The notes: generated from the sequence alone by a model not told the origin. A stretch of 64,000 nucleotides of DNA from Mobula hypostoma (GCF_963921235.1 NC_086097.1:168394001-168458000), one strand, 5' to 3'. Shown: positions 696 to 58,447, counted from the stretch's first letter. Translations and numbers: made by a program.

Positions 696-837
696 TCTGT
701 GATTCCTGTCCTACCCCTTGTCTGAATCCCTCCTCTACCCCTCTCGCCTCTAGCCCTCATCTGCAGCCCCCGCCTGCACTTCGGTCTAGTTCCATCGCTG
801 AAGCTGGATAGGTACTGTCTGGTGTTCATTCGTGTTG

Positions 838-1764: not shown

Positions 1765-2275
1765 GATGACCATGCTGATCTTCAATTGGAATATTCCTTA
1801 TAATTCCTTATTATCCCTTTGCTCTTAAAATATCCGTAGAAACCCTTAAGATTCTCCTACACCTTGTCTGCCAGAACAATTTCATGCCTTCTTTTATTCC
1901 TCCTGATTTCCCCCTTATGTACCCACACACAGCTCTTACACTCTTCAAGCACCTCAGTTGTTCTCTGCTGCCTGTACTTACTGTGCACCTTTGTTTCTTT
2001 ATAACCTCAATAACTCCAGAAAACCAAGGTCTCCTAAACCTGTTAGCCTTGCCTTTTATTCTACAGGAACATACAAATTCTGTTCTCTCACTACTTCAAC
2101 ACCACCTTTGAATGCCGCTCACTTCTAAGCATCACTTTGTCAGGAAACAACCTATCCCAAAACACATTTGCCAGATCCTTTCTGATGCCATCAAAATTGG
2201 CCTTTCACCTATTTAGAATCTCAAACCGAGGACCAGACCTATCCTTCTTTATCATTATCTTGAAACTAATGGAAT
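1765..2275 (-). mobile_element. Degraded CR1 LINE fragment
   Basis: Similar to 22420-22920 of the long minus-strand CR1 (e.g. CACATTTGCCAGATC..TTCT, AAATTGGCCTTTC). Confidence 0.65.
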
Positions 2276-4719: not shown

Positions 4720-5262
4720 ACAGATGCTGGAAATTTTAAGCAACACACAAAATGCCAGGGGAGCTCAGCAAGTCATGGAACATCTATGGAGGGGAATAAA
4801 CAATCGACGTTTCTGGCCGAGCCCCTTCATCAAGGCTGGTATGGAAGAAAACAGATGTCATAATATGAAGGTGGGGTTGGGAGAGGAGTACAGGCTGGCA
4901 GGTGATAGGTGAGACCAGCTGAGGGGGAACGCGGGTGGGGATGAAGTGGGAGGGTGAACGGGTCGGGGATGGGAAATGAGGTAAGAAACTGAGAGGGGAT
5001 AGGTGAGAGAGGTAGAGGGTTAAATAAGAAGGAATCTAATAGGAAAGGACAGTGGACCATGGAAGAAAGGGAAGGTGGAGGGAAATCAGAGAAGATGATG
5101 GGGAATGGTAATGAATAGAGAGAAGGGTGCGAGGGTGACCAGAAATTAAAATGGAAAGAGAGGGGGAGTAAAATTAATCCTTTAAAATGTACAGAGTCTT
5201 CCCTACTGCCATAGTGAGGCCAAATTCGGGTTGGAGGAGCAACACCTCATATTCCGCCTGGA
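4720..5262 (-). mobile_element. Penelope-like retroelement 3' fragment
   Basis: Same tail as the other copies (GCAACACACAAAATG...CATCTATGGA), a degenerate hammerhead motif at 4801-4838 and a GGAGCAACACCTCATATTCCG motif. Confidence 0.7.
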
Positions 5263-5298
5263 GGTACGTACACGGATTTCTTTAAACTGGGCAAGTCT

Positions 5299-5375
5299 GT
5301 GGGCGGGACTATGGGAACGAGACGATTGGCTGAGCAGGGGAGATTGTGGGCGGGACGACGCGGCTGACGGACCTA
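5299..5375 (+). promoter_or_regulatory. GC-box/CCAAT-box cluster upstream of PRELID3A
   Basis: GGGCGGGAC at 5301 and 5348, with ATTGG (reverse CCAAT) at 5325 between them; CpG-rich. Confidence 0.4.
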
Positions 5376-5384
5376 CCAGTGAGT

Positions 5385-6450
5385 GGGACTATTTGTCGGG
5401 AGAATGAACAGCCGACGTTTCGGGCTGAGACCCTTCATCAGGACTGAAAAGGAAGAGGGCAGAAACCAGAGTAGGAAAATGCGTGGAGGGGAAGGAGAGC
5501 AAGCTGGCAGGTGATAGGTGAGACCAGGTGAAGGGATGAAGTAAGAAGGTAGGAGATGGTCACCGGGAGTTCCTGCCATTTGCGGCGGATAAAGCGGTCT
5601 CCTAATCTGTACCGGGTCTCACCGATTTAGAGGAGGACACATCAGGAACCCCGGCATACTCACAGGTGAAGCGTCGCTCACCTGGAAGGACCGTCTGGGG
5701 CTCTGAATAGTCATGAAGGAGGAGGTGTAGGGACAGGTGTAGCATTCGTCACAGGTAAAAGTAGAGAGCGATTCCTGCGGAAAGGGGTGGGGGAGACGTT
5801 GGGTGGAAGGGAAAGGTGTGTTGTTGGAGCTGGCGGAAATAATGAAGAATGATGTACTGGATCCGTCGATTCGTGGGGTGGTAGGTAAAGGGGAGGGGAA
5901 CTCCATCTCTAATATGGTGGCTGGAAGATGTGGTGAGAGCAGATGTGCTGGAAATGGAGATGTGGGTGAGGGCAACATCGACAGTGGTGGAAGGGAGACC
6001 ACGTCCTTTGAAAGAAAGAGGCCATCTCAGATGTCCTGGGATGGAAAACCTCATCCTAAGAACACATGCGGTAGAGGCGGAGGAATTGAGAGAAGGAAGA
6101 ACCATTTTTTTTCAAGTGCCGGAATGGGAAAGAGGAATAGTCAAGATAGCCGTGAGAGTCAGTAGATTTGCAAAACAAATCTGTAACCAGAGATGGAGAC
6201 AGAGACAGAGAGCTCGAGAGCAGTGTGCGAGGTGGACCAAGTAAATTTGAGGGCGGGGTGGAAGTTCAAAGTAAAATTGATGAAATAGGCGGGCTCAGCA
6301 CGGGGTACAGGAAGCAGCACTGATGTAGCGCTGAAAAAGGTGGGGGGCGTTAACATTTTAGGCTTGGAACATGGACTATTCTACGTAGCCTACGAAAATG
6401 CAGACATAGCAAGGGCCCCTGGCTACGCATTTAATTTGGAGAAAATGGGA
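5385..6450 (-). mobile_element. Penelope-like retroelement fragment (RT C-terminus and GIY-YIG linker, decayed)
   Basis: Minus-strand translations FINFTLNFHPALKFTWS, RDGVPLPFTYHPTNRRIQYIIL and CDECYTCPY are typical of vertebrate Penelope ORFs; tail carries a hammerhead motif. Confidence 0.8.
5409..5446 (-). ncRNA. Minimal type-I hammerhead ribozyme motif in a Penelope-like tail
   Basis: Minus strand reads CAGUC-CUGAUGA-A-GGGU(CUCA)GCCC-GAAACGUC-GGCUG: conserved core, stem II, palindromic ACGU stem III, GUC cleavage triplet and closing stem I. Confidence 0.7.
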
Positions 6451-6559
6451 AGCGTCGAAAGAGAAATGGTTGAATGTGACGATTAATCCGAGGAGGGGAG
6501 CTGGTTGAAAGAAAGAAGCAGAGAGCTTTAACGGTGGCTGAAAACTGTAGGAGTGGGCG

Positions 6560-6900
6560 TTCTATGGGCGTCGCGTAAACGTTGTCATGCACGCCTGCCC
6601 TGGAGGCGGAGCGACGGGCGGCAGCGCGCCCTGGTGCTCGCTCCCACGGATGGCAGCGGCTGAATCCATCTCCTCCGGAGCGGAGCCGCAGCTCGAGCCC
6701 GGCGCCGGTTAACTGGCCGTTTGTAGTCACGGAAGCCGCCGAGTCTGTCGGCGACCGGGCCGGTCACTGAGGGCTGTTGGCGGACGCAGCGGCCGCTGCT
6801 GCAGCCGCCGGTGCCGCAGAACGACGACATGAGGATCTGGAGCTCGGAGCATTTGTTCAGGTGATCCGTCGGCCCGCGAGTAACTGGCTGGAGGTGGAGA
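6560..6900 (+). promoter_or_regulatory. CpG island / 5' end of PRELID3A copy 1
   Basis: Very high GC and CpG density around the ATG-containing exon. Confidence 0.75.
6829..6860 (+). CDS. PRELID3A: PRELI domain-containing protein 3A, copy 1, coding exon 1 (MRIWSSEHLF-S)
   Basis: ATG at 6829; matches the family N-terminus MKIWSSEHVF; GT donor at 6861; 32 nt. Confidence 0.92.
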
Positions 6901-9392
6901 GGGGTGGCCCGGCCTCTCCGAAAGTAGGGGGAGGAGGATGGGGAGGGGGTTAGGGTGATGTCCCGGATTCTGCCGTGGTCTCGGGCAGAGGTGCAAACGT
7001 CCGGTACTCACCTTGATGTAAGAGGAGCGTGTCAGGCAGCATTTGAGAGGCAAAAGGACTGATGCAGGGTCTCAACCCGAACCGTCAACTTTCATACTCT
7101 GTCTCCACACAGGCTAATCGACCCGCTTTGAGTCTACCCGATTCCAGCGCCTGTTGTCCCTTACCCTTACTTTGCTGTGGACTCGTCGAAGAGATAGCTT
7201 GCCCTACTGATTAAGCTGGTGTAGGTCGGGGTATGCAGGCTTTGGCTATGAGGCGAACGTTATTCATCTTTACCACAGTTATGTTCACCTCAAAACTGAC
7301 CATTTTTCCTTCTGTTTAAGATCTAATTTGCACTCAAATCTTTGTGCCATTTGTAGTTTTATGCTCCTGGTTGTAGTCGTTGCATTTATTATAGCCATGA
7401 CTTCTTTGAGCTTCATGCAGATAATGAATCTCACTGCGCCTTATGGTATATGATAAACTAATCATATATTAAAGTGTATTACATGATATAAAAGGATCTG
7501 CCTTGACAAAGAAATTTGTCATAAGCTGGAGTGATAGGAAAATGACAGCTTGATTTGAAAGGCAAATTAATTGCAATGTGTCTCTTTCCCAGCTGCAACT
7601 AATTCATCTGGGAAATATCTACAATAATAAACCTTATGTTTGGAAAATAGATTTGGGCTGCAGTTGAGGCAAAATATCTACCTCTTTGTAACTACACTGG
7701 TCCAATGAAATAATGGCCACGCATCATGCAGATGTCCTTGAAGATTTATTTTTATATCTCTCTCTCTTTCTTCAGCAGACACCGTGAAAACTACAAGAAA
7801 ATAAAAGACATAAAAAGTTTGAAACATACATCTCAGTCTTTTAAAGTCTCTCAAGCTAGTGTCTGCTGGTAAACAGGCCCAAAACACGTCAGCACAACAG
7901 AAGTGTGCTGAAATCAAATAAAGTCACTAAAAACTTATCACACTGTCCATATAAAGGCATGTCAACAACATTATACACAATATAAAACAAATAAAAACAA
8001 TTACCATGTGTGCCTCTTGGACCACGTGCAGAATAAGGTTATTTTAGGGCCATGTGTCTTTCTCTGCTTCCAGATTGGTTCTGACCCATAATGCTACAGT
8101 CATGCTCTTAGTAAACTCTGGTCATGTGACCCATTACACTCTACATTAAATAACACCTTACATAAAAAGCACAAAATTTTTAATCAAACATTATTTAAAG
8201 ATTTTTAAAAAGTCATAAATTTATGACAAAAACATATAAAATAAACATCGCAATGAAACATGTCTCCGAGACAGTTACACTCTTATCCAAACTTAGAATC
8301 TCAGCCACTTTGTATTTAGCCCTGGCTTATTCTTGCTTCAAAAGTTACTAGCTCAAATTCCACATGAGATTTCTGCTCATATTCAGGACTGACACATGAA
8401 ATGCATATTGAGATGCAGATATTTCATTGAGTTTCAGTTCTCTCTCAAGTACACTTAAAAGGTGCACAGCATTATCTGAAGATCAGCACTTTTTCTCATT
8501 TTATGTACTGCTCTTTGGAGCAATGATGTCACATTTATTGATGACATCCAAATGGAACCTGCTGCCACTTCTCTGGTCATCTGTTGTATTTAAAATACAA
8601 TATGTCTTGTACTTTAAGAGCAGATAATTATTTGGTAGACAGAAGCAATTGTCTTGGGAGCCTGATGTTTCAGTTGAATTGGATGGTTTGGAACTATACT
8701 TGACTTAAAAATGTGTTTTTGAGGATATATTTGGTTCATTACCAAGAACACCTGCTTCAACATCTGTAATCTCACCTGGCTCTATTCCTCTCTCAGTTCA
8801 TCTAATGCTGAACTCTTCATTCATGCCATGATTACTTTAGGAATTGACTAGTCCAACTTCCTAGCCACTGTGAAATTGCTCTCAACCAAAATCCCATTAT
8901 CTTTGTTCTAGCTCTCACAAAGCACGGTACAGACATTAGCACTGTCTTTGAGACTGATAATGACTTCCAGTCCAACAATGTTTTTTGTTAGTTTTCAGAC
9001 TCCTGCATGACCTTGCCCTATTGTGATGTGCTGTCATAGTAAGTCATGTGGCTCACAACATTGTCTATTCATTTGGTAGAAATGTTTGGAGAAAATGTGA
9101 TTTGATTGTGAACTTGTGAGGAATACATTTTGGTATAGAGAAAGGAGAATCACAATTTCTCCTGGAGTTAAACAACTTGATATCTTTGTAGTTGATTTCT
9201 AAGCTGTAGTGTATTTTACGTCTTTTTTCCCTGAGTTTTTAAAAATTAGAAGTACTTGTTCATGCATTTTAGATTATTATTGATTTTTATGCTAGATTTA
9301 AACTTTTTTAAACTTTGAATCATGCAATGCAGGAAGAGGCCATTATCCCTTCTATGACCAAATCATTTTATGTTGTGCGGTGATCTCAGTAA

Positions 9393-9644
<252 letters not shown>

Positions 9645-10829
9645 TAATACTGACACCTTTTTTTTGTATTGTATGTCCAAAATCAATAGGAAGTTTTAAA
9701 AAACAAAAATGTTTACTTATATGAATGTAGAGACTTTAGGAGAATTGGCACAGTTGCTCCTTCTGAAGTAGATATTAAACTGGAAAAAAAATCGATAAAG
9801 TTTGATATAGTGATGATCTGTCAATTCAATTAGTTTTAACATTTGAGGATGACATAGTTTCTGACCTTGGGTGCTGTCTGTGTACAGTTTGTATGTTCTC
9901 CCTGTGAACACACACTTCAGTTTCCTCCTTTGTCACAAAGACATGCTGGTAAGTTAATTGGCTACTGTAGATTGCTCCTATTGTAGATCAACGAAAGTAG
10001 AATTGGTGAAGTAGGTAAGCATGTGAGAGAAAACTGTGCATTTCACTGTATGAGTCAATGTGCATGTGATAAATAAATCTGAAATAGGATACAGGGGAGA
10101 ATGGGACTGACAGGATTGATCTAGACCTGGTGAGTAATTATAATTAAAATGATCAATTTTAGAAGTAATGTTTGTTCAATCCGAACAGAGAACAATGAAG
10201 GCATTAGGACAGGTTGCCTGTGAAAGACTGGCAAACTATTAAAGGGTATGATAAAAGGCAAGGAGTGACTAGCACTTAAAAATGTTCTGATAATGGTTCT
10301 CTACCCAAAATATCAACTCTCCATTTCCCTCCATAGATGCTGCCTGACCTACTGAGTTCTTCCAGCATTTTGTATGTTGCTGCAGATTTCCAGCATATAT
10401 AGTCTTTCTTGTGTCTGCATTTAACAAAATAATATGTTTGTAAAAAGAAAAATTCCTTCCATTTGAAAATATGGTCCTGCAGATTGCAGAGAAAATAAAT
10501 ATGGTATTAGATCTTGGAGACTTAAAGTAGCCAGGAAAGGTAGAAATCCTGAAGACTGAGAACATTTTAGAATTTGACAAAGTATGGCCATGAAGTTGAA
10601 GGGGAAAATCAAACATTAGAGTAAACTTATTAAAAAGACAATAAGAATATCTTTATCCATGTTAAAAATGTCTATTAGTTAAAAGAAAAACAGTAGCAAC
10701 AAGAAATGGGGGTCTGTTACATAGATGGTGGATTTATAACAGGAAATGAGAAAATGACAGGTAATTTATTAAGTATTATTATTGTTTGGCTTTGGTAAAC
10801 AAAATACAAGAAACATTATAAGTGATGAA

Positions 10830-11270
10830 GAAATAAGGGTACAGTTTGGATGAGAAAATGAAAGAAGTACTGCTAGAGAAGATAACAAATCTGAAAGCTG
10901 GTAAGTCACAAGAACCTGATAATTTGCACTTCAAACTTTTGAAAGAAATGTATACAGAGGTGGTGGATGCTCTGAGATTTCTTGCAGGACTCTATAGATC
11001 CAGGAATGATTCTTGTAAATTGGTGGATAATATATGCAGCCTCACTTTTTAAGGAAGCAGAGCGAAAATTGGAAGCTACCTGTTAGCTTGACATCAGTAG
11101 TTAGCATAACTCTGGATCCTCAATAAAGGATGTGCTATCAAGACACTTAGACTCATATTAATTGTGCATTTTATTATGAAGAGGAAGTTGTATTAACTCA
11201 TCTATCAGAGTTTTTTTGAAGGTGTGTCCAGAGAATAGATTAGGGGAAATCAGTGGAGGTGATGAAAAGG
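10830..11270 (+). mobile_element. Old CR1 LINE fragment in intron 2
   Basis: EVLLEKITNLKAGKSQEPDNLHFKLLKE resembles the CR1 KSPGPDGLHPRVLKE motif. Confidence 0.7.
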
Positions 11271-11980
11271 ATGCAAAGGCTGAGAACTTGGAGAAAAATG
11301 ATAGAAGAAAATCTGAGCAAAAATGTCAGATTTCCATGATGAGCGATTGATAACACTCAGTATAAACTTACATGTAACTAAACCCACCTATCATGGCATT
11401 TTGTTTTTTTTCTGCAGGCTTTTATCTTAAATGCAACGTTTCTCTATACTTGTAGCATAGGTCAGTTAAAATAATTAGAATGTTTTTGGCTTGGTGTAAA
11501 ATCAAAACTACCTAGCCTGCTTTTCAAACAAATTTTAAATGTGGCAGTTGAGAAGCAATTTAAAAAATGCAGGCAATGGAAGCTGAAAATAAGAGCATAT
11601 TTCTAGAAATTCTTGATAAGTTAGGCAGATCTGTACAGAAAGAACAGTTTCTCAGTTAACTTTATTTTTCTTCCTACTGAAAACAAGAATTTCCAGCATT
11701 CTTTTGCATTATAAATGTCAATATTGTTCGCAGCGATTGCTCCAACTGTCATTGCTGCAATGTTGTATTAAAATATGTACACTGTCTTAATTGCATTTAC
11801 TATTATGTATTAAAAATGACTGCAATGTCTGGTGTGAATTCAAATGTTGTTTGCTGTCTGTGCTTCTATTACATTTTTTTTCTGGATTGAGGGAATTTGA
11901 CATTTTACAGAACTTGAATCTCAATTAATGCCCCAGTGAGTTGATTCATATGGTAATCTTTTATAATATGTTTTTGTTAG

Positions 11981-12196
<216 letters not shown>

Positions 12197-12829
12197 TAGC
12201 AGCGTTGATTGTGGCTCAGTGCCAAGCACAAAGCACAAGACAGTACCATAACAGAACAACACTTTACAAGACAATAATGCAAACAGCAATGAGCAATCAA
12301 CAATTAGCAGAATGGTCACATGGGCAGACATCAATCAAACTTAAAGAAATGTGAACAGATCAACAGAACAAGGAGAGCAGGAAGGACCATTTAACAGATG
12401 TTGTGCAGGGACAGTTAGAATATTACACCTGAGTGAGTTGTTGAGAAGCAGGATGGCTACAGAAAAGAAGCTTCAAAGATGACATGTAGTCCTGGTGTTG
12501 ATGGACTTGTGGCATCTCCCTGATGGCAGTTTGGTAAACAGGTGACTGCTAGGGTTGGGGCATCAGCAGTAATTTTTTTCAGCTTAGCCTTGATTTAATC
12601 CATCTGTAGACTATTTCAATATCATTGGACTTGTTATTCCTGAAGCTGTTATTGTAAAATCTTCAGGGAAAATTGCCATTCTCAAGTAATGTAATGTTAT
12701 TTATGAAACAGTTGAAGATGATTCTGCCAGGGATCCTTCCCCAAGGAGTTCATGCAGTAATACCCTTGGATTATAATGAATGGGCTACCGTACTGGTACC
12801 TGTTTTTCTTAACATTATTTATTATTCAT

Positions 12830-13020
12830 TCATTGAGGTACAGTGCAGAATAGGCACTTCTGGCCCTTCAAGTTACGTTACGCATTAACCCCTGATTTAA
12901 CCCTAGCCTAATCACAGGACAATTTACAATGACTAATTAACCTACCAACCTGTCCACCTTTGGACTTTGGGAGGAAACCCACACAGTGATGAGGAGACGG
13001 TACGAACTCCTTTTAGACAG
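12830..13020 (-). mobile_element. V-SINE-like fragment
   Basis: CTTTGGACTTTGGGAGGAAACCCACACAG is the reverse complement of the V-SINE core; GGACAATTTACAATGACTAATTAACCTAC. Confidence 0.55.
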
Positions 13021-13466
13021 TGTGGATCCTTAAAGAAAGTACAAAGGAGGTGTGCAAGGCAAGTTTTTTTTATTTACACAGAATGCTGGGGGCCTGGACT
13101 GCACTACCAGAGGTGCTGGTGCGGGCAGATATTGTAGGAGTGTTTATTAGACTTTTAGATTGACACATGAATATAGAGAGAAGGGAAAGATATGGTCAAC
13201 GTGTGGAAAAGGAGGATTAGATTGGTAAAAATCATTGGTTTAACTCGTGCAGCACATCATGGCCAAAGGTCCTTTCCTGTGCTGTACTGTTCTATGTTCT
13301 ACATTAACTCCAGTCTTGGCACCAGATAGTTTTTAAAGCAGTAATTCTTTAAAGTTGAAGCAGATGTATCCACGTTTGAACAAAACTTTTAGTTGTTTAT
13401 GTACAAGCTGTACGTTTGGTGCTAAAAGTAAATGAAGGTTTTGTGATTGTGAATCTATAATGTTAA

Positions 13467-13559
<93 letters not shown>

Positions 13560-14689
13560 TGAGTTGAGTTTGGATTTTAATAATGTCTTTGGTTTTACAT
13601 GCAATATCAGTGTCTTGCAAGTTACATCTAAATAGCAATCATTATTCATTCTGCTGACAACTGCTCAGAGACATTGACGAATTTAGGGAAAATGGCCCTG
13701 AAATGCTTGATCCTGTTCTGCACCCTCTGTTGGATATTTTGGAAAAGCAACAATGAGGTTCATAAAACCAATCAGATTCAAGAAACTTTACTGAGTGCAT
13801 AATTTCTTAGTCATAGGGCACAGAAACTAGGAAGTATTTCTTAGCTTTAAATTGTGCACTAGAAAGAAAATCAAGATAAAGGAAAGCATGGGTTGAAAGA
13901 GGTGTGAGAAATTTGTGAAAGAATGAGTCACCATATTTGTAAAATTTTAGAACCAAAGTGATTGTTTCCCATTTATTATTGGTGATCGCACTTTAAAAAA
14001 TCATAGACACTTAAATAACTAGTGTTCTTCTGTTGCTTTTAGTAGGTTTTTGATGGGTAATTGCCACAACTTCATAACTATAAAGATTTCAGAGTTGAAT
14101 CTCTTGGTGATTCAGCACTACAGGATATCCTAGAAGAATGAGATATCTTTGGCCAAAATTTTGGAATTTGATATTTAATTAATAGCACATACCCTAAAAA
14201 TTGCTGTCCAGTTTATTCCATGATAATTGCCGATAATTAAGATCCGTTGTTAGAATCAGTGTACAATCCAGATTTTCTTTGTGAATTAGTGGATTTGGAT
14301 TTGAGCAGTTAAGGGCTTTGATTTTTCAGATCAACACAGCCAGCAACGTTGTCTACCTGCTGATAAGGAGGTTAAAAGACAACGATATAACATAGCAGTA
14401 ACTGTTTGGGAGAAATTGTGTACAGAGTAGAATCAAATTTGGGAATAAAGTTCTCCATCACAATAAAAGTCTCATTTTCAACACTTTTGTTGGATCAGAG
14501 AATGTTGCCACTTTGAATACAATAACATACATAACAGGAATAGGCCACTTAGCCACCTCAAGTCTGTTCTTCCATTCAATAAAATCATGGCAGATCTGTC
14601 TTGGGCTTCATCTCTTCTGTACCAGTTCTCCAAATCCTTCAATTCCCTGATCTTTCAAAAATATACCTACTTCCTCTTTTAAAATGTGA

Positions 14690-14860
<171 letters not shown>

Positions 14861-16198
14861 TAGATTCACAGATTTTTCTTAACCAAACATGCCCAAGGGA
14901 CTAAATGGACTTTTCCTGTTCCAGTGCCTTTCGCATCTTCTGGAATTTCTAAAGCATTGCCCAATCAAGTATTTTTGCGGTGTATCTATTGCAAAGTAAT
15001 ATAAAGTTTTTTTTACTTTAACCAGTACACCATGAAGAACTCTTATTAAGTATTTTGCATCAATTTAGAGAGAGAAAATGGTTTTAACATCTCATACTAA
15101 AGGCAGTGCAGCATTCCTCAATACTACCCTCTGGAGTTTACATTACACTTTTTAAGCATTCAGGCCCTCAGGTTTATTCGTGAATTCACCGAAGAAGCTC
15201 TGCCTTGTTGAATCTTGTTAATTTTGTTACTCTGTCATTCCTATCTTATCTATGCTTGAGCTGTTGTATCTACTAACTTATGCAGTTCTATGCACCATTA
15301 ACCTATTTTGGTTTAATTTTACTGTGTGTCTTTAAAGTTGAGGGACCTACTTGGCTTCCATGTCTACTACTTCTAAAGCTTAAAAAAATGAACCACTTTC
15401 TTCTCTACCTGTTACTGTCTCTCAGACTAATCCATTGAAATATCCTAAAATCTATCATTACCATTAAATTAACGAATCAACTTAATCTAATGATTCAGTA
15501 AATAGTTTTGTTTTATTATCCTTTGACATTGAATTCTGATACCCACCTTGGAATGTTTGGATAAATGAGAGTAGAATTCAAATCAGCTTATTTGTTTGGA
15601 TAAGGGATGATTATTACTTCACATGTAAAAAAAAATTAATTCTATAACATTATGGCTAATCTGATTGTAACTTAAACTCTGCATTCCTTCATATCCCCAG
15701 TAGTTTTTTCTCAAATCCCCTTGCCTGCCAAGAATCTTTCTTTGCCTTAAATGTACTACCATCCTTTGAGGAAAAAAAGTTCCAAAGATACATAGAATTC
15801 TATAACAAATCATATGGCTATGTATATCTCTTGAATATTTGATCCTTTAGTAACTCTGACTTCAGATTCTCCTAAAGAGGTAACATCCTCTCCATATCCA
15901 TCCTCTGAAGGTTTCTCAGGATCTTGTATGTTTTAATCAATATTCCTTTCACTCATGTAAACTCCAGTGGATGTTAACCTCATCTGTAAAGCTTTCCCTC
16001 ATAAGGCCACACTTTGTATAAAGAATATAAACATTGTCTGAATACCTTGAGTGAAGATAAAACTTGCCGTTAAAGGACTGTATGAAGAATTTTAGTTTTT
16101 ATCCTACTATTAATACAAAAAAGATGTTTTATTGTATGGTGAGAATACTGCAGACTTTGTATGCCCCTGTATGACATTCCTTTTCTGTGTTGCTCTAG

Positions 16199-16249
16199 GG
16201 GTGGGATGCTATTGAGTGGATAATTCAAAACTCTGAAAGTGTTAACTAA
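16199..16249 (+). CDS. PRELID3A: PRELID3A copy 1, C-terminal coding exon 6a (GWDAIEWIIQNSESVN*), giving a 171-aa isoform
   Basis: Polypyrimidine tract and ctctag acceptor, phase 0; resembles the mammalian PRELID3A tail as I recall it (GWAAIEWIIEHSESAVS). Confidence 0.85.
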   Translation, partial: GWDAIEWIIQNSESVN

Positions 16250-18482
16250 CAGCTTACACTTCTGCAATTTGCATTAACCAGTGGTAACTATTTATTGAAA
16301 TACCCAGCTAGTCTAATGTTTTATTGCATGTAATGGGCTCATGTTTGAGTGGCATGGACTGCATGTTTGTTATGCTTATAGCTAGCTATAATTTAGAAGG
16401 TGTGCTATCTTGTCATTAAAAAAATCAAATGTTTAATCTTTCAGCTGTATATATTTTACACCATGTGTTGCATTTTTCCCAAACATGCATTGATTATAGC
16501 ATCTATCCTCTGGTACTTAAAAAAATGATGTGCATTGTCTTGGGTGAATTTTGATAGAGAAGCAGGGTCATTTCAGAGTTTTGGGTCGTTGAGTGGTATC
16601 AGTTAGTGGCCACTCCTGAGGGATGATTATGAAAGAAACCTTGTTTGCTCGGTTTGAAGCATTAGATATATTTTATAGTGATAAGTTAATATAAAATTAA
16701 AATCTTTAAAATACTAAACAAGGTCTTAGTTTAGTACAAATTGTTACAGATTTTTGAGAGTTCTGTCAACTGCATTGTGTACTTTGAGTATTGAGGGTTA
16801 TTTTTTAACCCGAGAAAGAGAGAGAGGACAGCCACCTTAAACCTGAAATCACATTTGTTTCATTCGATCTGACTTTGAATGAATTTCTGGAACAAATGAT
16901 TAAGAGTGGACTGTTTAGACTATAGTGTCTGATTTATCAATGAAATCACTGGTGATTGTTAACATCCATCTTCCACATAGCCTCTTTAGAAAATCAATCT
17001 TGAATTTAAAATTAACTAAAGTTAATTAAGCTGAATTAATGACAGCTAAAGTTTGAAAAGCTGAATTTTGAGCGTACTTTAAACATTATGTCTATGGGCT
17101 TCAGCATCGATTATTCATGGCGAACGAGTTCCAGTTTCTGCCACCCTCATTTCTTTGGTTTCCTAACTTGAAGGATGAGCTGTAATTTTTAGACTCCTGC
17201 CCCTTTGGCTTTTTTGCCTACCTTGACTCCCGCATGTAAGATGACAGAAAGCTTGATTTCACAGAATCATACTGGACAGAAATGGGCTCTTTCAGCCCAC
17301 CTCTTTCTTGCTATCTGTGATGCCTACATAGTACTTGCATACTTTATGAACTTCTTTGGTTCTTTAACTTCAACTTAAGGCAATAGATGGAGATTGATGA
17401 CGTGCAGATATATTCTACTGTTTTTCCTTTTGGGAATCCAAGTATTTACTGAAGAGGATCTTTTATAAAGTTCTGTGACTATAGGAAAATAGATACTGTT
17501 TATATCCATTATTTTTTAAAGTTATCCATGGGATGATACTTGTGCAAGGGTTTTGCATGCCAAAATGTACTTTTCTATACATTTTGTGAGTAACAACAGA
17601 TGAATATTACAAAACCAAATTGAAATTATTTATTGCTTTAGATGTTAGCTTTTAATTTTAGTCAGTGATTTGTTTTGATAATATTTCTGTTCTGCAGGTG
17701 CATGACAGAAATATCATTTGTGTATTGGTATTTCATTGTGAAACTTGACCTGTATTTATTTTTAATTGTTGTAATTCAACCTTTGTTTTCCAGATTATAT
17801 TATCTTTCCTCCAGCCTGTGTATCCTCCAGACCATTCTAGGCATGTAATCTGAAACTGTTCTGCTGTTATGTACTGTAGCTAAGGAGTATTTTTTACTGA
17901 GAAAAACTTATTTCATCATTTGGTAGAAAAGCCAAGCATTGAAGAATAATACAAGTATATCTGTGTTAATCTTTCTCTCAGATTCTATGTGTAATGGCCA
18001 CAATTAGTTGAAAGATGCCTTGCATTTTGACTCATTTGTGCACATCCATTGTGGATTCTTTATCCCGTGCAAAGTTGGTCTTTCAAGTTGAATATAAATT
18101 AGTGATTTGCTTCAAAAAAGTACAGATGTAATTTTATAAGTTGTTCTTTGATAAGTCTGTGCATAGATAACAAATAGGAATAGGACTATGACAGGCAGCA
18201 GAAACAGTACTAATTCTGGAATCCAGAATTATACAGTATAAGGTTGCATAAAACAAGAGCATGAATAGGTCAGTCAATCAACCTTTGGAGTTCATTCAGT
18301 CAGATCATGGCTGATCCTGATCCAACCTAAGTCTCAACATTACTTTCCCATTTGCTCCCCATACCCTTTGATTCTTTTGTCAGTCACCATTTGATTCTAA
18401 TGTTCTCCTGGACAGAGAATACCTAAGATTCACGACCCTCAGAAGAACTTTTTCTTCATCCATCCTCAAACTTCTTATTCTG

Positions 18483-18682
18483 GCAACACACAAAATGCTG
18501 GAGGAACTCAGCAGGCCAGGCAGCATCTATGGAAAAAAATCCTGCTGAAGGGTCTAGGCCTGAAACGTCGCCTGTACTCTTTTCCATAGATGCTGCCTGG
18601 CCTGCTGAGTTCCTCCAGCATTTTGTCTGTGTTGCTTGGATTTCCAGCATCAGCAGATTCTCTCTTGTTTGTGATTTGACTC
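18483..18682. mobile_element. Short fold-back element made of two inverted Penelope-like tails
   Basis: ~50-bp inverted repeat (AAAATGCTGGAGGAACTCAGCAGGCCAGGCAGCATCTATGGAAAA and its reverse complement) around a degenerate hammerhead; flanked by the direct repeat CTTATTCTG (18474-18482 and 18683-18691). Confidence 0.75.
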
Positions 18683-19384
18683 CTTATTCTGAATGCCTAG
18701 ATGATATCTATGGAGAAGTATCTCTTCACAATCTTAAATATTTAAGTAAGATCACCACTCGCTATTCTAAACTATAATTACAACACCATATCCATCAACT
18801 TTTATCAATCTTTTCAAACCAGTTTTTGTTCTGTATTTAAGGAATTATATACTTGCCTGCAGTAAAAATGTATTATTTCTTAAGTAGGGAGTCAAATCTA
18901 TGTGCAGTAGTTCAGTTTCAGTCTCACACACTGCCCTGCAAAGCTGTATCAAATCTACTCCATGTTAATATTGTAAAAAATATTAGTCTTACTTATAGTT
19001 CCTATACCTGCATGCTAACCTTTTGGTGCTTCATGCTTTAGAATTTTCTTGGATTCCTTTGAACTGCATCATTTACTTATTCTATCACACTCTAACTAAT
19101 TATCCAATAATGGATAATCACATTTCCCCATAATAAATAGCAATTTTGAACCAGGCATCTATATTATTTCGCTCACTTCTCCTGGAGTAACAAGGCAATT
19201 GTCCTCTGTATGATTTAGGATCTGTAATTCATGCTTATAAAATGAGAGAGGTTACGATATTCCCCTTTAGAGTTAACGGAACATATTCCACTAATTCTCT
19301 CAGCAGTGAAGAAGTTTGCATTCATTTATCAGCACCTTTTAGTCTTAATTTCTGCTTAATTCCTTTATCTATGTTCTCTTTCAG

Positions 19385-19498
19385 GGCTGCAAAGCTATAG
19401 AGTGGGTAATAAACAAGACAAATGAGACTGAAGAATTATCAGCATCCGTCCAAGAGAATGTAAAGTCACCAACAGCTGTAGCAGCTGCTGAAGATTGA
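19385..19498 (+). CDS. PRELID3A: PRELID3A copy 1, alternative C-terminal coding exon 6b (GCKAIEWVINKTNETEELSASVQENVKSPTAVAAAED*), giving a 192-aa isoform
   Basis: ctcttttcag acceptor, phase 0; resembles the PRELID3B tail as I recall it ([35 protein letters not shown]); AATAAA at 19651. Confidence 0.8.
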   Translation, partial: GCKAIEWVINKTNETEELSASVQENVKSPTAVAAAED

Positions 19499-20899
19499 TG
19501 ACCCCTGGTTGTGCCACACCTCTGACTTCTATTCAGGAAATTCACTTAGTAATGTGTTCGGTGTTATTTTAAGATGTCGTACCTTTTTTATGGAAAGACA
19601 TTATAAGCTGCAAAATTGACTTTGGATGTATCAAACATTCAGGTCATTAAAATAAACAGCCAGCAGCCAAGCCTGTGAACATGGGGTACCAAGTTTCAAA
19701 TTATTTATAGTAAGTTTTGTTTTTATAGTGTCCTTTGTTTGACCAACATCTAGTCAATAACAGTTCACAAAGTGGCATCTTTTGGTAGGTGTGTATGTAT
19801 TTTTCTTTAAAGTAAGTGGTCTTATCCTTGAAATGCAACCAGAGGCATGGACAAGCATATGCACCTAAAGGAGCGTGCTGTTTGGCACCTATTGCGTTGC
19901 ACTGGATTAATACTTGACTGTGTAGTGGTTAATGTTGATGCCTTACAGCACTGAGTTAACAAAATGTTTATGTTTCAGAATGATGGTACAACGTCCTAAG
20001 TAAAATTTATTTTTATCATGAAGTTGAAATTTGGTTGTCTATCATTAGTGGCAGATCTCTGGAGGCTGGCCAGCTAGAATGCATAGGCATTCAACCAATG
20101 TTTTGGTCCTAAACTATAAAGAAATATGTATTTGAAGTCAGCCTAAGTATGTGGGCTGAACAAAAGTACACTGACCAGTAACTCAATCACTTCAGCACAG
20201 CACTGTTACCATAAAGATGTAACGCAATTTTGTGAAAGGCACGCATATCATAGTTCCAGAAATATTTCTATCAACGCAAAACTATTTACAATGTTTGCGC
20301 AAAAGGATTCCCATACCAGTCAGCTTTAGATAACTTCTAGCTTGACATTTGGACTATTTTTGCATAATTCTTTCTCAAATAATTTCATTTTGTTCCAATA
20401 CAATTATTTTAAAAACATTTAACAGAGGTTAGATTGTTTTCTGAATATTTATGTATTTAAATCCTGACTTGTGCTTAAAATACAGGATATTTTCTCTGAA
20501 ATACCTTGTTTTTTTTCCAACATTATCATGTATTTAAAAAAAACTCTGAAAATTCTTTAGAATAGCAAGTTGAGGCATACTGTATTTTGGAGAAGTAAAC
20601 TGAAATTGATTGTACTGTATCCATGCAATCTGCAGCTGACAATCCTTGTTTAACTTTTAGCATTAAATCCACATGTATTCTGCTCTCCCGAGCATGTGGA
20701 TCAGTGGAGAACAACTCATTTACTTGTGATTTTGATAGCAGTGTTTCTGTTTCCTATTTATGTGACTAGAAAATGTTGGAAACAGTCTGCTAACAAGGGT
20801 GGGGTTCAGGCCCAATCTAACCCACAGCTTCAACTGCCTGTTGCAGTATACCTGTCTCTCTATGGGGTAGCAAGGTTCTTTCTACCATGGGATGAGTCT

Positions 20900-23090
20900 C
20901 AGAGTCACAGAACACTAAAGCACAAACAAGCCCTTTAGCCCATCTAGCCTGTGCCCAACAATTAAACTGCCTCGAGTCAATTATCTGCACCCAGACCGTA
21001 GCCCTCCATACCCATCCCATTCTTGTACCTATCCAAATTTCTCTTAATTGTTGAAATTGGACCCCCATCCACCACTTGCATTGGCAGCTCATTCCGCACT
21101 CTGAGTGAAGAAGCCCCCCCTTTTGACCCTGTTCACCTTTCACCCTTAACTTATGACCTCTAGTTGTAGTCTCACCCAATCTCAGTGGGCAAAGTTGCTT
21201 GCATTTACCTTGTTTATCACCCCTCATAATTTTGTATACCTCTATCAAATCTCCCGTCCATCTTCTATATTCCCAGGAATAAAGTCTTAACCTACTCAAT
21301 CTTTCCCTGGAACTTAGGTCCTCAAATTCTGACAACATCCTTGTAAATAAGATTGAAAGAGAGCAAAGAAAATTTACACCTTTCCTGTAGGCAGTTGACG
21401 AAAGCTGCACACAGTACTTCAAATTAGGCCTCAATAATGTTGTATACAATTTCAACATAATATCCCAACTCTACTCAGTACATTGGCCTTCATTAAACCA
21501 TGTGCCAAAAGCTTACTTTTCAACCCATGGCTAAGGATGCCACTTCCAAGGAATCTTGGATCTGTATTGCCAGATCCCTCTGTTCTACTGCACTCGTCAG
21601 TGCCTTACCACTGACCATGTAAGACTTATACTGGTTGTCGTCCCAAAGTGCAATGCCTCACATTTGTCTGCATTTAATTTCATCTGCCATTTTTCCAGCT
21701 GATCCAGACCCTGCTGCGAGCTTTAATAGTCTTCCTCACAGTCCACTATACCCAAAATCTTGGTGTCATCTGCAAATTTTTCTGATGCAGTTTACCACGT
21801 TATCATCCAGTTGCTATAGATGACAAGCAACAATGGACCCAGTACTAGCCCCTGCAGAATGCCACTAGTCACAGACCTCCAAACAGAGAGGCAACCATTT
21901 ACAACCATTCTCCTGCAAAGCCAGAGACTAATCCAATTTATTACCTCATCTTGACCAACCTCCCATACAGGACCTTGTCAAAGGCATTGCTAAGGTCCAT
22001 GTAGACAACATCCACTGCCTTGCCTTCATCAACTTTCCTGGTAGCTACCTTAAAAAACTGTATAAGATTGACTAGACCTGACTTACCACGTACAAAGCCA
22101 TGCTGACTAGCCCTAATCAGTCCCTGTCAACCCAAATACTTATAGATCCAGTCCCTTAGAATACTTTCCAATAGCTTTCCCACCTATATTGTCAAGCTGA
22201 CTGGCCTATAATTTCCTGGCTTATTCTTAGGGCTTTTCTGGAAAAAAAAGAGAACAAATTTATCTATCCTCCAATCCTCTGGCACCCTACCCATGGCTAA
22301 GGATGTTTTAAATATCTCTGCTAGGACCCTGGCATTTTCTGCACTTGCCTCCTGCAGGGTCTGAGGGAACACCTTGTCAGGTCATGGGGATTTATCCACC
22401 TAATACGTCTCTTTCAGCTCCATGTATAGATTACCATTCTGATCTTCTAGAGAACCAATTTTGTCCCCTGCTATCCTTCTGCTCTTAATATATTTGTAGA
22501 AGCCCTTAGGATTCTCCTTCACTTTGCTAGAGCAGTCTCATATCTTCTTTTAGCCCTTCTGATTTCCTCCTTAAATGTTCTCTTGCATTTCTTATACCTA
22601 CTCCTTTAGAATCTCATTTGTTTCCGCCTACCTATACCTGCTGTGCATCTCCTTTTTCTTAACCAGGGCCTTAACACCTCTCAAAAACGAAGGTTCCCTT
22701 ATCCTTGCCTTTTATTCTGGCAGGAACATAGAGACTGTACTCTCAAGAATTCACTTTTGATGGCTTCCCACTTACTAGGTACAGCTTTGGTAGAGAACAG
22801 CCTGTCCCAATCCACATTTGCCAGATCGTTTCTAATACCTTCAAAATTGGCCTTTCTCCAATTTAGAATCTTAACTCCAGGACTAGACCTATTCTTTTCT
22901 ATAATTACCTTGAAAGTAACGGCATTATGCTCACTAGATGCAAAGTGTGCCCCTTCATAAACTTTTATTACCTGCCCTGTCTCTGTCCCTCACAGGAGAT
23001 GTGGTTTCACCCTCTCTCTAGTTGGAATTTATATGTACTGTTTAAGGAAACTTTCCTGAATGCATTTGACAAACTCCCTCCCTTAAATCC
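20900..23090 (-). mobile_element. CR1 LINE, decayed ORF2 and 3' end
   Basis: Translations LYTTLLRPNLKYCVQ, DLIEVYKIMRG and VPEDWRI...PGNYRPVSLT. Confidence 0.88.
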
Positions 23091-24267
23091 GGTTTACAGT
23101 ATGCTGATGAAAAGTAATGTGTCTTGTTTCTCTTAAAGTGGTACCTTGTTGGATTTTAATTACGTAGCCTAGTAATTTGGATTTCCCAATATAAGGAATC
23201 CATTACATAGTCATTATCTTGCAATTGGAGGGAGAAGGCAGAAATTCGAACGGACTGGGATGTCTGAGATTATAAAAATCCTGCCTTAATGAAATCCATG
23301 CCTCTTTCCTCTGGAAATCCGGCAGACATCATGGAAAGCTAGCCAATTTTTGGATTGATCCAGAAGTTTTTTTTTTCTCCAAGAATATATTTACATAGAA
23401 AACTTAAACTGTTTGGATGTTATAATAGCAAATAAGTATCAAATGGACGAATAGGATTAATAAGTTATCTGAAAAGAGATGAACTGCTTAGAATATGCTG
23501 TACAGCACTAGGTATCTTTACTAATTCATGATTTTTTTTTTAGAGGATTCAGGCGTTGCCTTCTCACTCTAATCTTGAATGCATTGTGGAAAAGAGTATA
23601 GTCAACGTTTCGGGCCCAGAACCTTCATTGGGACTCAATACGTACTCTTTTCCATAGGTACTTAGTGGCCTGCTGAGTTCCTCCAGCTTTGTGTGTGTGT
23701 TGTTTGGATTTCCAGCATTTGCAGAATTTCTCTTGTTTGTGACACCAGTGTAGGAAAGCTTTGCTGTAGTTATAAATAATGTTGTAAACCACAACTGAAG
23801 TACTGAATGTAGATTTGGATGCTTTGTTTATGGGAAGATGTACTTGCCACAAACAAATATAAGAGTGGGTATGTTGGACCTATAGTCTTTTGAAGTTTAG
23901 AAGAATAAGAAAGTCGGTGAAATATAAGAACCTGGGCAGATGCTGATCAGAGTAGATGTTGAGAGGCTATTTCCTTCAGGGGGAAGAATTGAGAAGTCGG
24001 GGTGAATAGTCTTAAGCAAAGTCTCCATTTAAGATGAGCTTAGAAGGAATTTCTTTTTCTAAAGAGAGTTGAATCTTTGGAATCTTCTGGCTCTCAGATT
24101 CATAGATATTGAGTTCTTCATTACATTAATGGATGAGACATGATTAGACTTTAGGAGAATGGAGGGTTACAGAAAACAGACAGGAATGTAGAGCCAAAGA
24201 CAAGATCAGAGTAACTATGGTCTCTCTGAATGGCAAACAATCCCAATGGGCAGTAAAGCCTACTATT

Positions 24268-26710
24268 TAGAACATAGAAAACTCACAGCACAATACAGGC
24301 CCTTCGCCCCACAAAGCTGTGCCGAACATGTCCTCACCTTAGAAATTACCTAGGGTTACCCATAGCCTTCTATTTTTCTAAGCTCCATGTACCTATCCAG
24401 GAGCCTCTTAAAATACCCTATCATATCCGCCTCCACCACTGTCGCCGGCAGCCCCTTCCATGCACTCACCACTCTCTGCATAAAAAAAACTTACCCTGAC
24501 ATCTCCTCTGTACCTACTTCCAAGCACCTTAAAACTGTGCCCTCTCATGTTAGTCATTCAGCCCTGGGAAAAAGCCTCTGACTATCCACATAATCAATGC
24601 CTCTCATCATCTTATATACCTCTATCAGGTCACTTCTCATCCTCTGTCACTCCAAGGAAAATAGGCTGAGTTCACTCAACCTATTCTCATTCTCATAAGG
24701 CACACTCCCCAATCCAGGCAACATCCTTGTAAACCTCCTCTGCACCCTTTTCTATGGTTTCCACATCCTTTCTGTAGTGAGGCGACCAGAACTGAGCACA
24801 GTACTCCAAGTGAGGTCTGACCAGGGTCCTATATAGCTGCAACATTAGCTCTCGGTCTCCTAAATCCATTTCCACGATTGATGAAGGCCAATACACCGTA
24901 TGTCTTCTGAACCACAGAGCCAACCTGCTCAGCTCCTTTGAGTGTCCTACGGACTCGGACCCCAAGATCCCTTGATCCTCCACACTGCCAAGAGTCTTAC
25001 CATTAATACTATATTCTGCCATCATATCATTGACCTACCAAAATGAGACGTCACTTCACACTTATCTGGGTTGAACTCCATCTGCCACTTCTCAGCCCAG
25101 TTTTGCAGTCCTATCAATGTCCCCTTGTAACCTCTGACGGCCTTACACACTATCCACAACACTTCCAACTTTTGTGTCATCAGCAAATTTACTAACCCCT
25201 CCCTCCACTTCCTCATCCAGGTTATTCATAAAAATCAGGAAGAGCAGCATTCCCAGAAGACATCCCTGAGGCACACCACTCTGGTCAACGACCCCCCCCC
25301 CCCATGCAGAATATGACCCACCTACAACCACTCTTTGCCTTCTGTGGATGAACAAAGCAACGTTCCTCTTTGGGATTTCATGCCTCCTTACTTTCTCAAT
25401 AAGCCTTGCATGGGGTACCTTATCAAATGCCTTGCTGAAATCCATATACACTACATCTACTGCTCTATCTTCATCCATGTGTTTAGTCACATTCTCAAAA
25501 AATTCAATCAGGCTGGTAAGGTACGACCTGCCTTTGACAAAGCCATGCTGACTATTCCTAATCATATTATGCTTCTCCAAATGTTCATAAATCCTGCCTC
25601 TCAGGATAATTTCTCCATTAACTTACCAACCACTGAAGTAAAACTCATTTGTCTATAATTTCATGGGCTATCTCTACTCCCTTTCTTGAATAAAGAAATA
25701 ATATCTGCAATCCTCCAGTCCTTCTCTGGAACCTCTCCCGTCCCTATTGTTGATGCAAAGATCATTGCCAGAGGCTCAGCAATCTCTTCTCTCACCTCCC
25801 ACAGTAGCCTGGGGGTACACCTCATCCAGTCCCAGTGACTTATCCAACTTGATGCTTTACAAAAGCTCCAGCACATCCTCTTCCCCTGAATATCTACATG
25901 CTGCAGCTTTTCAGTCTGCTGTAAGTCTGGTATCTGACAATTGCCAAGATCCTTTTCCAGCTAGTGAATACTCTTGAAGCAAAGTACTCATTAAGTACCT
26001 CTGCTATCTCCTCTGGTTCCATACACACTTTTCCACACTGTCAAACTTGATTAGTTCTGTTCTCTCACAACGTCTTATCCTCTTGCTCTTCACGTACATG
26101 TAAAATGCCTTGGGGTTTTCCTTAATCCTGTCCACCAAGGCCTTCTCATGGCCCTCTCTGGCTCTCTTAATTTCATTCTTAAGCTCCTTCCTGCTAGTCT
26201 TATCATCTTCTAGATATCTATCATTACCTAGTTTTTTGGACCTTTCGTAAGCTCATCTTTTCTTTCTTGACTAGATTTACAACAGCCTTTGTACACCACA
26301 GTTCCTGTCCCCTCACCCATCCTTTCCCTGTCTCATTGGCAATTAGGTACCTATGCAGAACTTGCTCATGCCAAGTATCCCCTGAACATTTGCCACATTT
26401 CTTCCATACGTTTCCCTGCAAGAACATCTGTTTCCAATTTATGCTTCCAAGTTCCTGCCTGATAGCATCATATTTCCCTTACTCCAATTTAAACACTTTC
26501 CTAACTTGTCTGTTCCTATCCTTCACCAAAGCTATGGTAAAGGAGATAGAATTGTGATCACCATCTCCAAAATGCTCTCCCACTGAGAGAAATCCCACAC
26601 TTGGCCAGGTTCATTTCCCAATACCAGATCAAGTACAGCCTCTCCTCTTGTAGGCGTATCCACATATTGTGTCAAGAAACCTTCCTGAACACACCTAACA
26701 AACTCTTTCC
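24268..26710 (-). mobile_element. CR1 LINE, 5'-truncated, frameshifted RT
   Basis: SQHGFVKGRSYLTSLIEFFE, VYMDFSKAFDKVPH, SGVPQG, SKFADDTK, LVRPHLEYCAQFWSPH. Confidence 0.92.
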
Positions 26711-28340: not shown

Positions 28341-29675
28341 GCTACACTTGCCCTTACACTTCCTCCTTCATGCAGGCAAGCAGGGCCTTCTCAGAACCTT
28401 TGCAGCAATAAATGCCTAAATCTCATCCATTAAGATGTGTGAAACATGGGCAAATGAAAGCTTGCCTAGATCAAGAAGTACAGTTACAAAATGGAGCCAA
28501 GTATCAGAACTTACATAGATATCAGTTCACTATTAGTAATGCGCAGTGACTTCAATGGTTTGAAAGCCAACAGATTCATAAATCATGGAAGCTCATCTCA
28601 GTCAGAATCATTCTTCAAGTATATCAACACAGCATTATCTATGAATGCTGTAGAAGAAGAATTCACGTCACTACAGGTAGGGAAATGATTGCTGGGGCAG
28701 TGATGATCCTTCATGTCCTTACTGGCCATAGAAGTCATATCAGAGGAGGTTTTAGAAAATGGCAAATGTTCCATCTGTTTCTGATGTTTGACCTCTTCAA
28801 TAGCTGGCATTAGATCACTGAGTTTAAAATGCATCAGTTTTGCAAGCTAATAGAGAGGATCCTGAGAGATAGTATTTTCAATAAGGGATGGGTCATCATG
28901 GCTAACTTGTGATGGGCAGGTTGTGCCACACAACCTTGATGGACTCTTTGGTGTCTCAACTGAGTCCAGCAACTGAATACCATGGCATGTCTATGAACTT
29001 GGATGTCCAACTCTATCTGATGGAGGCTGACTTGAAAGTCCAGAGCAATTGCAGGCAACAAATTGACACAGGATAGTATGGAGATAAGAGAACAACCTGG
29101 GCAATGTCATTAGCTTGTGAAGTGCTCACCTGAGCTTTGGTTTCTTTGAAACGCTTCTTCCATCCTCACTAATTTAGGTTGGCACTGAGCAACTCCTTTG
29201 CTTGCATCTGTCAGAAAAAGCTGTGTTTGGTTGTTGTTGGTGATATCTCTTTTTTACCTTTTCAAGGTTCTTTTGAAGACCTTGATTGGATAAGTGAAGG
29301 TTACACTCTGACTAGTGGACCTGGACTTGCAGGGATGTGTGTCCCGCATGAGCAATCATGGGCCTCCAACAAAGCATCAGGCTGATGGTGGTTTGAGCCA
29401 AGGAGGTGGCCACCCTTGAATAATTATTTCAGGGTGCCGGAAATCTGTGGAGGATGATGGGCTGATTCAAGGTCGGTTTTAAAATGGCATCGTGGGAGAA
29501 CTTAGAGTTAGCTGTGTGCTCGGAGACCTGAGCCTGGTCCAGGGCCAATTCTCTGGGTGTGGAACTCGGAAGAAAGTGATCACAGAGCCGATGACTGGTT
29601 GAATTGCCCAGGCGACGTGTGAGGGATGACAGGAGTATGTCTCACGTTGATAATATTTAAAACTGTGAAACGGTG

Positions 29676-30250
<575 letters not shown>

Positions 30251-30450
30251 NNNNNNNNNNNNNNNNNNNNNNNNNNNNNNNNNNNNNNNNNNNNNNNNNN
30301 NNNNNNNNNNNNNNNNNNNNNNNNNNNNNNNNNNNNNNNNNNNNNNNNNNNNNNNNNNNNNNNNNNNNNNNNNNNNNNNNNNNNNNNNNNNNNNNNNNNN
30401 NNNNNNNNNNNNNNNNNNNNNNNNNNNNNNNNNNNNNNNNNNNNNNNNNN
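30251..30450. other. Assembly gap (200 N)
   Basis: Run of exactly 200 N, typical of a scaffolding gap of unknown size. Confidence 0.99.
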
Positions 30451-50296: not shown

Positions 50297-50334
50297 CAGC
50301 CGACGTTTCGGGCTGAGACCCTTCATCAGGACTG
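50297..50334 (-). ncRNA. Minimal hammerhead ribozyme motif (duplicate of 5409-5446)
   Basis: Same sequence as copy 1. Confidence 0.65.

Positions 50335-54280: not shown

Positions 54281-54532
<252 letters not shown>

Positions 54533-56868: not shown

Positions 56869-57084
<216 letters not shown>

Positions 57085-58354: not shown

Positions 58355-58447
<93 letters not shown>

Follow-up and report, generated by a model that had tools for sequence, protein, structure and literature searches.

Two homologous last coding exons, likely alternative, in the PRELID3A gene of Mobula hypostoma

Introduction

The studies of human PRELID3A considered here all used a single form of the protein, the one that ends in the exon here called 6a. 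A stretch of 64,000 nucleotides from Mobula hypostoma (GCF_963921235.1 NC_086097.1:168394001-168458000), hereafter the window, carries a PRELID3A gene in which exon 5 is followed by 6a and by a further exon, 6b, that opens in a similar way. The locus raises the question of whether one gene makes two proteins with different C-terminal tails, how old such an arrangement is, and what the exchange could do to the protein. The product shares its fold with human PRELID3A/SLMO1 (4XZV, 8AG0) and PRELID3B/SLMO2 (6I4Y), which belong to the Ups/PRELI group of lipid transfer proteins. In its available portions, the literature on human PRELID3A and PRELID3B treats each gene as one protein and does not mention a 3B-like isoform of PRELID3A.

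The analysis presented here makes it likely that PRELID3A has two homologous alternative last coding exons, and that the choice between them replaces the latter half of helix alpha3, with a predicted change in membrane docking. Isoform pairs that have residues 1-155 in common would offer a clean test of the part played by this half-helix in the difference between PRELID3A and PRELID3B. The arrangement would also be an ancient duplicated-exon switch, missed by human-centred catalogues and retained or eroded differently by lineage.

The PRELID3A gene and the exon pair 6a/6b

The coding parts of the gene in the window are as follows.

6829-6860, plus strand: exon 1, coding part, 32 nt, inside a CpG island; found from sequence, N-terminus equal to that of named ray proteins
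9452-9620, plus strand: exon 2; 100% identity to five batoid PRELID3A proteins, AG/GT ends
11981-12070, plus strand: exon 3; AG/GT ends, frame maintained
13488-13558, plus strand: exon 4; joint 13558-14749 seen in four of four RNA runs
14749-14851, plus strand: exon 5; phase 0 end at Lys155, mid helix alpha3; RNA joints
16199-16283, plus strand: exon 6a, 16 codons, stop TAA at 16247-16249, donor after 16283 used in RNA run X9; acidic Trp157 tail, probably derived
19385-19498, plus strand: exon 6b, coding part, 37 codons and TGA; 3B-like tail, probably ancestral, identical in the Mobula proteins P0121, P0123 and P0124

Exons 1-5 supply 465 coding nucleotides and end in phase 0. The initial annotation had proposed two acceptors after exon 5, two peptides and a donor behind the 6a stop, and all of these hold: AG precedes both 16199 and 19385, translation reproduces both peptides, in proteins of 171 aa (6a) and 192 aa (6b), and 34 nt separate the TAA from the GT donor after 16283. 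The pyrimidine fraction before the acceptors is 0.77 for 6a and 0.86 for 6b, compared with 0.68-0.73 for exons 2-5. The 6a donor fits the consensus at 6 of 9 positions, and constitutive donors at 5-7 of 9 by the same count. Both exons are on the same strand, 3.1 kb apart, with a spliced 47-nt alternative exon between them in rays.

Over their first 30 nt, 6a and 6b are identical at 21 positions and different at 9. When the first 10 residues of 6b were compared with all frames opened by AG within the window's unique 44.9 kb, 6a ranked second among 2834 plus-strand frames, behind 6b itself, with a score of 34 (next, 21); the best of 3084 minus-strand frames scored only 18. The homology of 6a and 6b exceeds chance. 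Their homologous peptides, of 16 and 37 aa, stand against the minimum of 7 aa that PMC9741552, in its available part, sets for the homologous translated regions of tandem duplicated exon substitutions. The 6a peptide is identical to the tails of several named ray isoforms. Furthermore, the proposed likeness of 6a to the mammalian PRELID3A tail and of 6b to the longer PRELID3B tail was confirmed, human PRELID3A (4XZV) being of the 6a type and human PRELID3B (6I4Y) aligning right through the 6b tail.

At the other end of the gene, an upstream SINE-like segment (4752-4838, GT donor after 4838) codes alternative RefSeq N-termini, which start at 4786 in P0123 and P0004 and at 4752 in P0001 and P0129.

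Spread and direction of the duplication

A core tree of 44 hand-picked proteins, with the rabbit row left out as too short and the window's joined protein not included as a row, separated 3A from 3B at 98/97 support and placed the batoid rows inside the 3A clade. On these sequences, the gene is a PRELID3A orthologue.

Isoforms were surveyed from the listings of named cluster members, most of which are automatic RefSeq models. Both tails are named for PRELID3A in at least 17 species among the members listed: batoids (Hypanus sabinus, Hemitrygon akajei, Mobula birostris, Amblyraja radiata, Rhinoraja longicauda, Narcine bancroftii), sharks (Scyliorhinus canicula, Heterodontus francisci, Cetorhinus maximus, Stegostoma tigrinum), the chimaera Callorhinchus milii, where 6b follows an extra segment, squamates (Anolis carolinensis, Pogona vitticeps, Ahaetulla prasina) and mammals (Equus przewalskii, Sus scrofa, Phacochoerus africanus). 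In these mostly automatic models the two tails belong to distinct transcripts of one gene, and within each of Hypanus, Heterodontus, Anolis and Equus the 6a and 6b isoforms have the same core. The tandem exon duplication had been supposed to be ancient, and the presence of both tails on PRELID3A from chimaera to mammals bears this out; judged by sequence comparison, the exon pair is older than the split of jawed vertebrates.

Among the members listed, the 6b type alone was found for coelacanth, gar, turtle, tuatara and birds, and the 6a type alone for frogs, primates and most teleosts. Additional 6b-type models come from rhinoceros, donkey, stoat, mink and rabbit, and the PRELID3A tails of conger and tarpon are 6b-like. 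No 6b type appears for frogs or acanthomorph fishes among the members listed, and a word-limited search gave no primate 6b model among the 23 matches listed. The 6b open frame and 3B-like pattern are intact in stingrays, devil rays, sharks, coelacanth, turtle, tuatara, squamates and birds; horse, rhinoceros, mustelids, pig and rabbit retain some 18 residues of 6b. Several batoids have an eroded 6b, of 16 aa in three skates and the sawfish and of 7 aa in Narcine. The skates and sawfish (P0126, P0132, P0139, P0140) have a common shifted-frame 6b ending relative to 19385-19432. Stingrays and devil rays retain the shark 6b frame, which leaves two independent shifts or one reversal.

A wider census of tails covered 582 proteins, 486 of them aligned through exon 5. 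The 3A group held 97 tails of the 6a type, 65 of the 6b type, 6 ambiguous ones (5 being stingray or devil-ray 6b) and 69 others. In the 3B group the 6b type was found in 190 of 192 proteins and the 6a type in 0 of 192, in a teleost-heavy sample with 120 3B rows from one teleost query, with 6b-type queries that favour 6b tails, and with no named shark, lamprey or other cyclostome 3B. The divergent homologues were of the 6b type in 50 of 57 cases, with 2 ambiguous, 4 other and 1 called 6a; this lone call is a goby 3A-type model and not a genuine divergent 6a. Over the first 12 residues of the tail, identity in the hand-picked panel was 0.86 for 6a-6a, 0.66 for 6b-3B, 0.60 for 6b-6b, 0.42 for 6a-3B and 0.41 for 6a-6b. 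The ray 6b is about equally close to 6a (0.50) and to 3B (0.55) over 12 residues.

In the simplest reading, which is probably right, the ancestral exon is 6b, and a single event in the 3A lineage gave rise to 6a. The initial annotation had instead entertained an ancestral state later partitioned between the paralogues. Full partition is excluded, because PRELID3A retains both exons in sharks, squamates and mammals, even placental ones. The census yielded no genuine 6a tail on a 3B protein or a divergent homologue.

At position 157, 37 of the 48 distinct divergent tails have Arg, and the 6a type has Trp. A quail 6b-type tail (P0095) carries Trp157, which suggests that Arg157 could become the 6a residue through a single base change. 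The Cys or His at 157 in sharks, coelacanth and gar may reflect decay of a CpG codon.

Transcripts of the ray gene and the 47-nt exon

RNA was examined as contigs from 4 of 12 runs (organisms A, A, B and C; three studies) on 13400-20900, and the runs were treated as RNA because spliced exon 4-5 joints are present. They added two features.

17794-17840, plus strand: 47-nt alternative exon with a GC donor; joints 14851-17794 (X1, X4) and 17840-19385 (four of four runs)
19499-20636, plus strand: 3' UTR within the terminal exon 6b, end approximate; contig ends at 20474 (X1), 20536 (X9) and 20636 (X4)

The 47-nt exon, which the initial annotation had missed, is demonstrated in organisms A, B and C only. 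Its joint 17840-19385 reads GC..AG once the cut is shifted two places, and its frame 1 occurs in RefSeq isoform P0004. A long X4 contig runs from exon 5 through the 47-nt exon into 6b, which is the frameshifted form. The donor after 16283 is used in RNA in one of the four runs, X9, where one contig goes from 6a (16283) to the 47-nt exon with three additional letters; in this one contig, these letters form a stop if read in the exon-5 frame. A second X9 contig joins the 47-nt exon to 6b. These suggest that 6a and 6b are co-included in X9, as separate contigs and not as proof of a single transcript. Contig depth cannot rank isoforms, and cover over 6a, lacking in X4 and flat in X1 and X2, was not read as absence.

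Exon 5 is skipped in X1 and X2 (joint 13558-19385). In X2, one contig spans 14823-17841 and others cover the next intron; together with the skipping of exon 5, such intron-spanning contigs suggest much unproductive splicing or retained introns. The three proposed junctions 14851-16199, 14851-19385 and 16283-19385 are absent among the 15 joints listed, 161 others not being among those listed. Noise from a SINE at 18480-18670 crowds the joint list, and the three junctions are neither shown nor excluded. As they are not among the listed joints, neither full protein isoform is directly shown for the species of the window.

For the unusual tails of Pristis (P0005) and Callorhinchus (P0015, P0380), an origin in the 47-nt exon was considered, and mapping rejected this. 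The odd last exon of P0005 is homologous to an intron 5 stretch (15719-15840), and the inserts of P0015 and P0380 have no clear match.

Three products were computed. Exon 5 followed by the 47-nt exon and 6b yields 175 residues, the last 20 of them an unrelated tail, with the stop in the last exon; exon 4 joined to 6b, with exon 5 skipped, gives a 125-aa product; exons 5, 6a, 47-nt and 6b in a row encode the 171-residue protein, the junctions lying 34 and 81 nt beyond the stop. A stop more than 50-55 nt ahead of the last junction marks a transcript as a target of nonsense-mediated decay (NMD), and by this rule the last of these transcripts would be a target. Poison exons are a general class coupled to NMD. 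Like them, the 47-nt exon is short, is not a multiple of three and has a weak GC donor, and its inclusion spoils the product, through a shifted frame (175 aa) or an 81-nt junction after 6a. Unlike usual poison exons, it would act by two putative routes, frameshift without NMD after exon 5 and a distant junction after 6a. Its assignment as a candidate poison exon is an even call. Assembly of X9 nevertheless recovered the joint of 6a to the 47-nt exon with ease, and high abundance is possible for transcripts with introns in their 3' UTR (PMC13223760, available part). The proposal of 6a as a cassette exon that escapes NMD survives in one part. Its donor is in use; escape was not shown, because the sole contig leaving that donor enters the 47-nt exon and not 6b, and because the 47-nt exon puts the last junction 81 nt beyond the 6a stop.

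The exon pair in helix alpha3

In structure models of the two stingray isoforms, whose fold is best matched by 8AG0 (PRELID3A-TRIAP1, TM 0.83), alpha3 comprises residues 138-170 in the 6a form and 138-190 in the 6b form, model confidence dropping beyond about 170 in the long (6b) form. Therefore, intron 5, placed after Lys155, halves the helix. The statement that the tail helix lines the lipid cavity is right only in part; the exon does code the second half of alpha3, but in a simulation of yeast Ups1 residues 158, 162 and 166 are turned to the membrane.

According to the available part of that Ups1 study (PMC7447767), the alpha3 residues K154, M158, F162, K166 and R171 touch the membrane in simulation and alpha3 charge reversals impair binding; K166 was tested only in a quadruple mutant, of which the two N-terminal changes alone abolished transfer. 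Judging from matched ranges, Ups1 numbering appears to match PRELID3 here, and PRELID1 likewise has Lys at the alignment column of 166. Position 166 is Lys or Arg in 15 of the 24 distinct 6b tails, 14 of the 17 3B tails, 27 of the 48 divergent tails and 1 of the 22 tails binned as 6a, this one being the quail 6b tail that carries Trp157. Residues 156-168 have a mean charge of -2.4 in 6a and of about 0 in the other tail types. The long tail of the 6b form is neutral to basic, as in PRELID3B, and the 6a tail is short and acidic.

With a confidence just short of even, we propose that the loss of the basic residue 166 and the added aromatic would weaken electrostatic docking of the 6a form on anionic membranes. 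According to the available parts of two reports, human SLMO1, which is of the 6a form, moves PA weakly in vitro (PMC4515122); as a GFP fusion it is found in the cytosol, and it fails where SLMO2 succeeds, in the rescue of fly slmo (PMC11649117). Weakened 6a docking fits the lower PA transfer, the cytosolic location and the failed rescue of SLMO1, as a consistency and not as proof. TRIAP1 binds residues 13-39 (PMC4515122, available part); hence, both isoforms should bind TRIAP1. A point against the docking proposal comes from yeast Ups2, for which the available part of PMC6408443 reports that the Omega loop set lipid specificity and that removal of the distal tail did not, though mutations clustered at R151-G159.

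A proposed explanation and its rivals

In the arrangement of two alternative last coding exons, skipping of 6a would give the 192-aa form with its long PRELID3B-like, neutral-to-basic tail, and inclusion of 6a would give the 171-aa form, with Trp157 and the short acidic tail, and turn 6b into 3' UTR. In rays, the 47-nt exon would likely be an off switch for both tails. After exon 5 it is computed to throw 6b out of frame, and after 6a it would lengthen the distance between the stop and the last junction from 34 to 81 nt, inviting NMD. A more far-reaching version, which we hold doubtful, is that the PRELID3B-like isoform of PRELID3A is the mitochondrial, phosphatidylserine-carrying form across jawed vertebrates, placental mammals included, that the 16-codon swap is why the textbook PRELID3A is cytosolic and cannot take the place of SLMO, and that the ray 47-nt poison exon gates both.

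The same evidence can be read otherwise. The exon could have been duplicated before the 3A and 3B genes split, PRELID3B losing 6a afterwards, and 3A 6b is indeed closer to 3B (0.66) than to the neighbouring 6a (0.41). However, rapid change in 6a alone yields the same identity pattern, and such a history needs one gain and one loss where one gain suffices; with the 6a tail in 0 of 192 3B-type proteins and the lone divergent call traced to a goby 3A-type model, we regard it as unlikely. It is somewhat less improbable, and still rather doubtful, that the ray 6b is a decaying coding exon retained as terminal UTR, so that only the 6a protein matters and 6a skipping means off. Skates, sawfish and Narcine do have a frameshift or early stop, conservation is lower for the 6b tails (0.60) than for those of 6a (0.86), the listed joints into 6b, from exon 4 and the 47-nt exon, are all out-of-frame or UTR-forming, and frogs and acanthomorph fishes lack a retrieved 6b type among the members listed. 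Yet the open frame and 3B-like pattern persist in the groups named above, from stingrays to birds, the 18 or so residues remain in horse, rhinoceros, mustelids, pig and rabbit, and the frameshifts of skates and sawfish leave the first 11 residues intact and a tail as long as that of 6a.

A role of 6a chiefly as an alternative terminal exon, ending in a poly(A) site of its own rather than serving as a cassette, would accord with the ATTAAA hexamers at 16415 and 16696 and with a donor matching at just 6 of 9 positions. Constitutive donors score no differently (5-7 of 9), however; there is no AATAAA between 16199 and 19131, and the X9 contig exits exactly at 16283 and continues downstream, which makes this reading unlikely. 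Finally, the 99.98% identical whole-gene repeat that the window contains beside a gap could prompt the thought that 6a or 6b is a product of assembly duplication, or else a chance look-alike. This is scarcely credible: the two have 9 differences in their first 30 nt and lie inside one gene copy, and the cross-species isoform pairs, with both exons conserved from chimaera to mammals, refute it.

Relation to known systems

Two homologous exons giving alternative C-termini, and dating from in or before the jawed vertebrates, resemble the tandem exon substitutions of Martinez Gomez et al. (PMC8373072, PMC9741552), among which the C-terminal class accounts for 77 of 236 human events (PMC9741552; available parts in both cases). 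Unlike that class, the PRELID3A 6a transcript can retain 6b as UTR, and in rays the 47-nt exon intervenes. In the human catalogue, the supplement table of PMC8373072 gave 0 matches to PRELID3A or SLMO1, with the controls CALU and KRAS found; both names are also absent from the main texts of PMC9741552 and PMC4494069.

The locus also recalls splice isoform separation (Abascal et al. 2015, PMC4494069, available part), in that the paralogue 3B has only one exon type. There, each paralogue keeps a different exon; in contrast, PRELID3A retains both, and the outgroups show the 6b type only. Since they do, nothing shows that the ancestor possessed both exons.

A literature search that lacked most subscription papers found no paper on the two tails of PRELID3A. 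In their available parts, PMC7657496 gives three cattle PRELID3A isoforms without making the two-tail point, and PMC13343711 counts PRELID3A with the genes whose splicing is altered in FTD tissue. The SLMO1 exon of an NMD paper (10.1101/2023.09.21.558767, available part) is exon 1B, unrelated to 6a/6b. The exon pair stands already in automatic annotations and is apparently undescribed in the literature.

The repeated gene copy and its surroundings

Positions 1-19112 of the window repeat at 44889-64000 (offset 44888), with 4 mismatches, no gaps and 99.98% identity. The repeat contains a second gene copy.

51717-62728, plus strand: exons 1-5 once more, with 6a at 61087-61171 and the 47-nt exon at 62682-62728, each identical to the first copy

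The 6b of this copy would begin at 64273, past the window end. Within 29675-36517, a GGC run ends at a gap of 200 N (30251-30450), directly followed by a 6.07-kb fold-back palindrome; a GGC run with a fold-back is typical of contig-end artefacts. RefSeq has identical Mobula hypostoma proteins in two accession series. The second gene copy is probably a false duplication at a contig join, a very recent genuine duplication being less likely, and the repeat has no bearing on the 6a/6b pair. Around the gene, a search for conserved neighbours covered 98 of 211 flanking ORFs and gave LINE fragments and one weak LRRNT match only. Minus-strand LINE reverse transcriptase and endonuclease fragments lie at 21795-25622 and 42413-43882.
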